Shown here piece after piece: positions 56,853 through 57,619 of a stretch of DNA of 64,000 nucleotides. The stretch lies in the NCBI RefSeq assembly GCF_057098645.1, contig NZ_CM169472.1, one strand, 5' to 3'. The position numbers were made by a program, and so were the translations under genes. The number at the start of each line of letters is the position of its first letter. Position 1 is the first letter of the stretch. The notes beneath the pieces were generated by a model, which saw only the letters and a list, made by a program, of their open reading frames with translations, ran no database searches and was not told where the DNA came from.

Positions 56853-57619
56853 TTAATTGAGCTCCTGTACCCCACCACCGGAGACGGTGAGAATTTGTCC
56901 GCTTACCCAGCTGGCTGCAGGCGAGCAAAGGAACAACGCTGCGTTAGCAATATCTTGCGGTTGGCCCAGACGTCTGATCGGCGTGTGCTGTAACATTTTT
57001 TGTTCAATTTCTGGTGTAATAACGGATTTCAGGGCATCGGTTAATATTGCCCCCGGCGCAATGCCATTTACCCGAATATTTTTTTCACCCAGGTCAAACG
57101 CCATATTTCTGACCAGATGACTGGCCGCAGCTTTAGATGATGCATAGGAAGTCATGTTTATATTTTTATTTTCTGCCGCCATAGAAGTGATGGTCAGAAT
57201 AACGCCACCGCCATTTTTTCCATTTCTGGCGCAACAAGTTGTGACAGATGGAAAAAAGAAAACACATTCAGTTCATAAGCACGGCGAAAATCTGCCATTG
57301 GCATATCAAACGGTTTAGGACCACCGCCACCGGCGTTGTTAACCAGGATATCAACTTTACCCAGCTTACTGACGGCAAAGTCTGCCAGTGCAGAGAGTTC
57401 CTGTTCGGAAGTAATATCACAACGCCAGGCAAATGCCTGACCACCCAGTTGTTGAATTTCATCTACAACATGGTTAGCTGCGTCGGCATTAATATCACTG
57501 ACCACTACAGATGCGCCAGCTGTCGCGAATGTAATGGCGATTTCTTTACCAATACCTGCACCCGCACCTGTGATGATGGCGCATTTTCCGTCGAGTCTCA
57601 GGTTGTCAGAATTAAACAC
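56853..57619 (-). pseudogene. hdhA: hdhA (7-alpha-hydroxysteroid dehydrogenase) with a 1-nt frameshift in a homopolymer
   Basis: Split into 141-aa and 109-aa ORFs; both halves match HdhA; run of six T at 57214-57219 (plus strand) where the intact gene has seven as recalled. Confidence 0.7.

Follow-up and report, generated by a model that had tools for sequence, protein, structure and literature searches.

A one-base deletion in an A7 run has very probably turned hdhA into a pseudogene in an O145:H28-type sub-lineage of Escherichia coli

The window analysed here is a stretch of 64,000 nucleotides from contig NZ_CM169472.1 (assembly GCF_057098645.1). It carries hdhA, the gene for 7-alpha-hydroxysteroid dehydrogenase (HdhA), at its orthologous position between uidR and malI, in the gene order of annotated E. 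coli genomes. The features of this region are collected in Table 1. The gene is broken by the lack of one base. On the plus strand, positions 57190-57225 read CGCCACCGCCA TTTTTT CCATTTCTGG, with exactly six T at 57214-57219, and the coding strand across the site reads CCA GAA ATG GAA AAA ATG GCG GTG GCG TTA TTC TGA. The frame is lost after Lys135 and a TGA follows six codons on, at 57194-57196. The longer open reading frame (ORF), of 141 residues, ends in APEMEKMAVALF (also given as LVAPEMEKMAVALF) before its stop codon, and its last six residues, MAVALF, are out of frame. The shorter ORF, of 109 residues, starts at Met147 with MAAENKNINMTSY (also given as MAAENKNINMTSYASSK). The first-pass annotation had placed both halves of the gene here, out of frame at the run of six T, and both the sequence and the two ORFs bear this out. 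It had also stated that one base would restore a single ORF of 255 residues, and indeed the A7 allele of O145:H28 strains encodes an uninterrupted protein of that length.

Table 1. Features of the uid-hdhA region of the window (positions in the window)
Feature	Position	Strand	Description
IS5-family element in uidC	50747-51948	+	Target duplication CTAA; uidC split into 49958-50749 and 51946-52423
uidB (glucuronide transporter), pseudogene	52462-53835	-	TGG to TGA at codon 98 (53542-53544); stop derived in the window and L014, gene intact in C325, L026 and L027
uidA (beta-glucuronidase)	53832-55643	-	ORF intact; derived V189M (codon 55077-55079), marker of the sub-lineage with the hdhA frameshift
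hdhA (7-alpha-hydroxysteroid dehydrogenase), pseudogene	56853-57619	-	767 nt against 768 nt when intact; equals the O145:H28 allele minus one A
C-terminal ORF of hdhA, 109 residues	56853-57182	-	Native residues 147-255, including Tyr159 and Lys163; without Ser146 and the NAD-binding domain
Second A7 run of hdhA	57079-57085	-	GAAAAAAAT context, shared with the frameshift run; intact here; internal control
N-terminal ORF of hdhA, 141 residues	57194-57619	-	Residues 1-135 (Rossmann/NAD-binding part with the TGAGAGIG motif) plus MAVALF; profile match
Frameshift site	57214-57219	-	T6 on the plus strand, A6 on the coding strand; codons Glu134-Lys135-Asn136 (GAA AAA AAT when intact)
Translation start of hdhA, intact	57617-57630	-	Shine-Dalgarno AGGAGGT at 57624-57630; GTG at 57617-57619 inside ATGTG

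At the start of hdhA the window reads CACAGGAGGTTTATGTGTTT. The start is marked by an ATGTG overlap at 57617-57621, and both this motif and the Shine-Dalgarno sequence are kept in the pseudogene. Initiation of hdhA has been located experimentally at a GUG behind AGGAGGU, with only the GUG being used in reporter work, and the abundance of HdhA is listed as 447 ppm (PMC9841429). Because the strong Shine-Dalgarno sequence and the GUG are intact, we consider hdhA to be a young pseudogene from which a useless N-terminal fragment is probably still expressed.

The identity of the gene is clear. When the frame is repaired, the product (which equals the O145:H28 protein) is identical at 253 of 255 residues to the crystallised E. 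coli 7-alpha-hydroxysteroid dehydrogenase (PDB codes: 1AHH, 1AHI and 1FMC) and scores 539 bits against the NCBIfam equivalog NF004773, whose cut-off is a whole-protein score of 367 bits. The fragments fall under this cut-off, with 263 bits for the 141-residue ORF (profile positions 1-136) and 239 bits for the 109-residue ORF (profile positions 147-255). Thus, the locus is the HdhA gene by descent and encodes no member protein of NF004773. The catalytic triad of the enzyme consists of Ser146, Tyr159 and Lys163 (PMC4785404). Ser146 and its strand (residues 136-146) are encoded by neither ORF, and no single chain holds both the triad and the TGxxxGxG NAD-binding motif, the latter (as TGAGAGIG) being on the N-terminal fragment and Tyr159 and Lys163 on the C-terminal ORF. 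We infer that NAD-dependent 7-alpha-dehydrogenation of bile acids would be lost in the A6 genome, because Ser146 is unencoded and the NAD-binding fold is split from Tyr159 and Lys163.

Over 17.7 kb (33000-50700) the window is 100.0% identical to C325, Z1323HEC0422/0399, UTME-3 and O145:H28 strains, all of which have a 768-nt hdhA annotated as intact. Because of this identity to genomes of the O145:H28 clade, the window is, as judged from its sequence, O145:H28-type E. coli. In a base-by-base alignment with the 768-nt allele of O145:H28 strain RM9872, the change from A7 to A6 is the sole difference in hdhA, and over 6,768 bp the two genomes differ by one SNP and the hdhA gap. The comparison with C325 over 16.2 kb around hdhA gives four SNPs, the deletion in the A-run, an IS5 insertion and nothing more, and polarisation shows two of the four SNPs to be private to C325. 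Among complete genomes, the 768-nt (A7-length) gene is present in 26 of 26 near-identical members of the O145:H28 clade, and none of E. coli matches the hdhA of the window at 100%. A Shigella origin had been suspected from this lack of a full match together with the rearranged chromosome; it was rejected on the 17.7 kb of 100.0% identity to O145:H28-clade E. coli and is also countered by the IS content, which comprises IS5, IS21 and IS110 with no dense load of the Shigella type.

A prophage is present at about 14400-32594, between phoQ and tqsA, with genes for terminase, portal, protease, capsid, a RepA-like helicase and an integrase (31189-32418). It also carries IS21 (istAB, 24615-27033) and an IS110-family transposase gene (28130-29326). 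The integrase end adjoins a tqsA without its first 128 nt, with the junction at 32594. The prophage joins purB-phoPQ to tqsA-pntAB, an arrangement that, of about 5,400 complete E. coli genomes, only 3 share at a coverage of at least 80%.

The A6 allele is also found in other assemblies of this sub-lineage. One of them is the contig L014 (Logan assembly of run ERR3905718; the contig is in 5 samples), which came from a search with uidB, so that hdhA had no part in its selection. Over 17.1 kb its identity to the window is 100%, and it too has A6. Its uidC is uninterrupted and lacks IS5, so L014 represents a different genome from the window. As a marker independent of hdhA we used the UidA V189M protein; the uidB W98* change had been considered as a lineage marker and was dropped, being homoplasic on many backgrounds. 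A search with the V189M protein yields 24 contigs, all of them from NCBI or Logan assemblies other than that of the window. They fall into three arrangements when grouped by neighbouring proteins, and the bases were read in one representative of each arrangement. All three representatives have A6, and in 13.8 kb each differs from the window at 0-2 places. IS5 is absent from uidC in all of the V189M contigs. An intact uidB is present in 23 of them, and the remaining one (GCA_029357705.1) has a uidB lesion unlike that of the window, a 1-nt deletion. Since the state of uidB differs and uidC has no IS5, these contigs come from genomes other than that of the window. For the same two reasons, GCA_029357705.1 was rejected as a candidate for the window's own assembly. 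Accordingly, hdhA has the marks of a unitary pseudogene: the gene is intact in the O145:H28 clade, it is disrupted here, and the lesion is shared across the sub-lineage, as judged from the representatives of the 24 contigs.

The same change has occurred elsewhere in E. coli. An 81-nt probe on the run matched 5,412 complete E. coli genomes, of which 14 have exactly A6, and the non-exact matches listed are all one base longer. This agrees with the statement in the first-pass annotation that the intact gene has seven, as does the A7 of the nearest intact allele. In public contigs at large, about 589 have the exact 141-residue product and at least 1,000 have the exact 109-residue product. The A6 alleles are polyphyletic, as is seen when 2.7 kb of malI-hdhA-uidR are compared by neighbour-joining and by nearest neighbours. 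They form at least eight groups (the window with GCA_029357705.1 and L014; L004 with 1218KP and AREA_C483; NCTC86 with ET210; O111:H8; JL05; SMBL; L006; and L007), and several of them are 0-2 SNPs from an A7 allele. For NCTC86, A6 is found in two records bearing the strain name. Because the other A6 strains are 20-48 SNPs away, the A6 of the window has an independent origin on an O145:H28-type background. RefSeq already annotates hdhA as 'frameshifted' in all eight A6 complete genomes that were fetched (TC24, NCTC86, O111:H8 05-3004, SMBL, JL05, ET210, 1218KP and AREA_C483). Thus, the lesion is already known, in that the identical frameshift is annotated in public genomes of other lineages. 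Our literature search found no paper on the A7 to A6 frameshift of hdhA; one pan-genome paper has hdhA as an 'extended-core' gene that is missed in 1 of 44 genomes, the lesion not being given.

The genes next to hdhA are also affected. When the window is polarised against C325, L026-L028 and L014, the derived changes of its sub-lineage over about 34 kb are the A7 to A6 change in hdhA, UidA V189M, uidB W98* and IS5 in uidC, i.e., three inactivations and one missense change, with no synonymous or intergenic change. The IS5 site in uidC is empty in L014, L026-L028 and C325. The 1-nt deletion in uidB of GCA_029357705.1, at window position 53679, is independent of W98*. The genes of uidCBA-hdhA handle host-derived glucuronides and bile acids, and the clustering of lesions in them could reflect relaxed or adaptive loss of these functions, though the numbers are small and this is at most a modest hypothesis. 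The pattern hints that selection on the handling of glucuronides and bile acids has been relaxed in the sub-lineage. A stronger version is that uidCBA-hdhA is being dismantled under selection, or under strongly relaxed selection, so that these sites are recurrent, niche-driven hotspots of loss rather than places of neutral decay. Behind it stands the recurrence in E. coli at large, with at least eight origins of the hdhA change and at least four of the uidB codon-98 stop; we consider this version unlikely.

Several further observations concern the uid genes. A search conditioned on the uidB fragment of the window finds the codon-98 stop in 117 index blocks of public assemblies. At least four origins are apparent: TGA followed by GTA at codon 99 (the window and L014), TGA followed by GTG (L010, L012, L013 and L015), TAG (L008, L009, L016 and L017), and TGA in L011, an Escherichia that is only about 90% identical. 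The IS5 copy in uidC and another at 223-1424 are 100% identical, inverted and 49 kb apart, each with CTAA flanks. E. coli S1-KEN-03-A has an IS5-like element of the ISKpn26 family at the same uidC site and in the same orientation, on a background that is about 1.2% diverged, which suggests an insertion hotspot or the transfer of a segment.

Could the missing base be an error of sequencing or assembly, the true genome having seven T and an intact hdhA of 255 residues? Under-calling of homopolymers is a common artefact on some long-read platforms, and the window spans multi-copy IS elements, which makes a long-read or finished assembly its probable source. In addition, JL05 and one NCTC86 assembly have frameshifts in the neighbouring malX and malI too, which means that A6 may be miscalled in some of the public genomes. 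Against this, such an error should not be reproduced and should come with further homopolymer frameshifts, while A6 is found in independently assembled sister isolates that differ from the window in the presence of IS5 and the state of uidB, and no second coding indel is seen in 31.4 kb. Over that length, compared with the annotated reference S1-KEN-03-A, there are nine 1-nt indels; eight are intergenic and the sole coding one is in hdhA. The hdhA run remains the only coding indel when RM9872 and C325 are taken as further references, and apart from hdhA and the lesions in uidB and uidC the conserved chromosomal genes in the window are full-length ORFs. Control A7 runs are never called as A6 in complete genomes (0 of 5,425 for mnmA and 0 of 5,390 for phoP) compared with 14 of 5,412 for the hdhA run. 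The second A7 run of hdhA gives 0 exact A6 among 3,687 matched complete genomes, where polymorphic flanks limit the matches; this contrast is suggestive, and mnmA and phoP are the cleaner controls. Because A6 is reproduced, no other coding indel is present and the controls give zero, a homopolymer error specific to this assembly is very unlikely.

As to the intergenic indels, six of the nine relative to S1-KEN-03-A cluster in the uidA-uidR spacer, at 56019-56032 and 55927-55949, and four of these are found within a short stretch of the (GA)n type (GAAAGAGAGAGAGAAT versus GAAATGAGAGGAT). Upstream of the uid operator area there is thus a region of simple sequence that varies locally.

A second possibility, also raised in the first-pass annotation, is phase variation, in which the A-run would act as a contingency tract and frequent slippage in it would turn hdhA on and off. 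The lesion does lie in a mononucleotide repeat, the run is mutable to the extent that A6 is found on at least eight haplotype backgrounds, and reversion from A6 to A7 is mechanistically possible. However, the tract is short (7 to 6) and lies in the middle of a gene for a cytoplasmic enzyme, and about 99.7% of complete genomes have A7. Its length is uniform in each clade, with A6 in the three V189M representatives and A7-length genes in all 26 genomes of the O145:H28 clade, and no A8 allele of the run occurs in complete genomes. A contingency locus would show length polymorphism among very close relatives, with both plus and minus variants, and such polymorphism was not found here. The pattern fits rare one-way slippage followed by inheritance rather than switching. 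With lengths constant within clades and no +1 allele, we regard phase variation as very unlikely.

Equally little weight can be given to recoding, by which full-length HdhA would be made from the A6 allele if ribosomes were programmed to shift by -1 on the A-run or if the transcript slipped there. After a -1 shift following GAA AAA, AAT would be read again, which gives exactly the native E-K-N-G, and Lys-tRNA is known to slip at A-rich sites in E. coli, as in dnaX. However, nearly all orthologues (those of about 99.7% of complete E. coli genomes) are in frame, so the A-run lacks the frameshift conserved across orthologues that a programmed site would have; the motif, when read in the zero frame, also falls short of a full X XXY YYZ heptamer, and six A are fewer than the roughly 8-9 or more that RNA polymerase needs for appreciable slippage. 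In principle, traces of full-length HdhA might come from a low-level -1 slip on GAA AAA A, and nothing suggests that such a slip is programmed.

We therefore favor the genuine loss of one A from the A7 run in the ancestor of an O145:H28-type sub-lineage, followed by stable inheritance, and give this a probability of about 0.93. Genuine gene decay was one of the three options in the first-pass annotation, and it is the one selected by the A6 in independently assembled sister isolates and the intact orthologue in the closest relatives. We suggest that slippage during replication deleted one A:T pair from the run at codons 134-136. The frameshift and V189M would then have arisen in an ancestor shared by at least 25 isolates and been inherited stably. 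Subsequently, uidB was probably struck twice and independently, by W98* (the window and L014) and by the 1-nt deletion of GCA_029357705.1, and IS5 probably entered uidC last, in the window only. A cell with A6 would make at most the 141-residue N-terminal fragment and perhaps, by re-initiation at Met147, the 109-residue one. The loss of hdhA was presumably tolerated since the gene is dispensable. The lesion is thus an ordinary pseudogene of a well-known dispensable gene.

These findings have practical consequences. Annotators should mark hdhA as 'frameshifted' here rather than list two SDR fragments. Strains of the sub-lineage are predicted to lack 7-alpha-hydroxysteroid dehydrogenase activity, by which cholate and chenodeoxycholate are converted to 7-oxo bile acids. 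In E. coli more widely, the A7 run of hdhA is a recurrent site of loss of function, and therefore calls of hdhA presence in surveys of pan-genomes or bile-acid metabolism mis-score such strains. Furthermore, the hdhA frameshift, UidA V189M and the later lesions in uidB and uidC can serve together as ready markers by which a sub-lineage within the O145:H28 EHEC clade is recognised.

Compared with the HdhA represented by the crystal structures and by NF004773, the locus in the window is alike in the gene itself, in its uidR-hdhA-malI context and in its GUG start with a Shine-Dalgarno sequence; it is unlike in that the ORF is broken after Lys135 and no single polypeptide combines the triad with the NAD-binding fold. 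The eight strains whose hdhA is 'frameshifted' in RefSeq share the A7 to A6 change at the identical run and the 767-nt gene, though their haplotypes are others and differ from that of the window by 20-48 SNPs in 2.7 kb. In the contingency loci of Neisseria, Haemophilus and Campylobacter, the frame is likewise shifted by a change of length in a mononucleotide run. The tracts of those genera are longer, lie mostly in surface or restriction-modification genes and have several lengths among close relatives; hdhA resembles them in its homopolymer frameshift, whereas the long tract and the multiple lengths are not seen in it. In E. coli O157:H7, uidA is inactivated and the phenotype is glucuronidase-negative. 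The window is similar in showing lineage-specific decay of the uid neighbourhood by small mutations in an EHEC-related lineage, but here the ORF of uidA is intact, with V189M as its only change, and the lesions are in uidB, uidC and hdhA.
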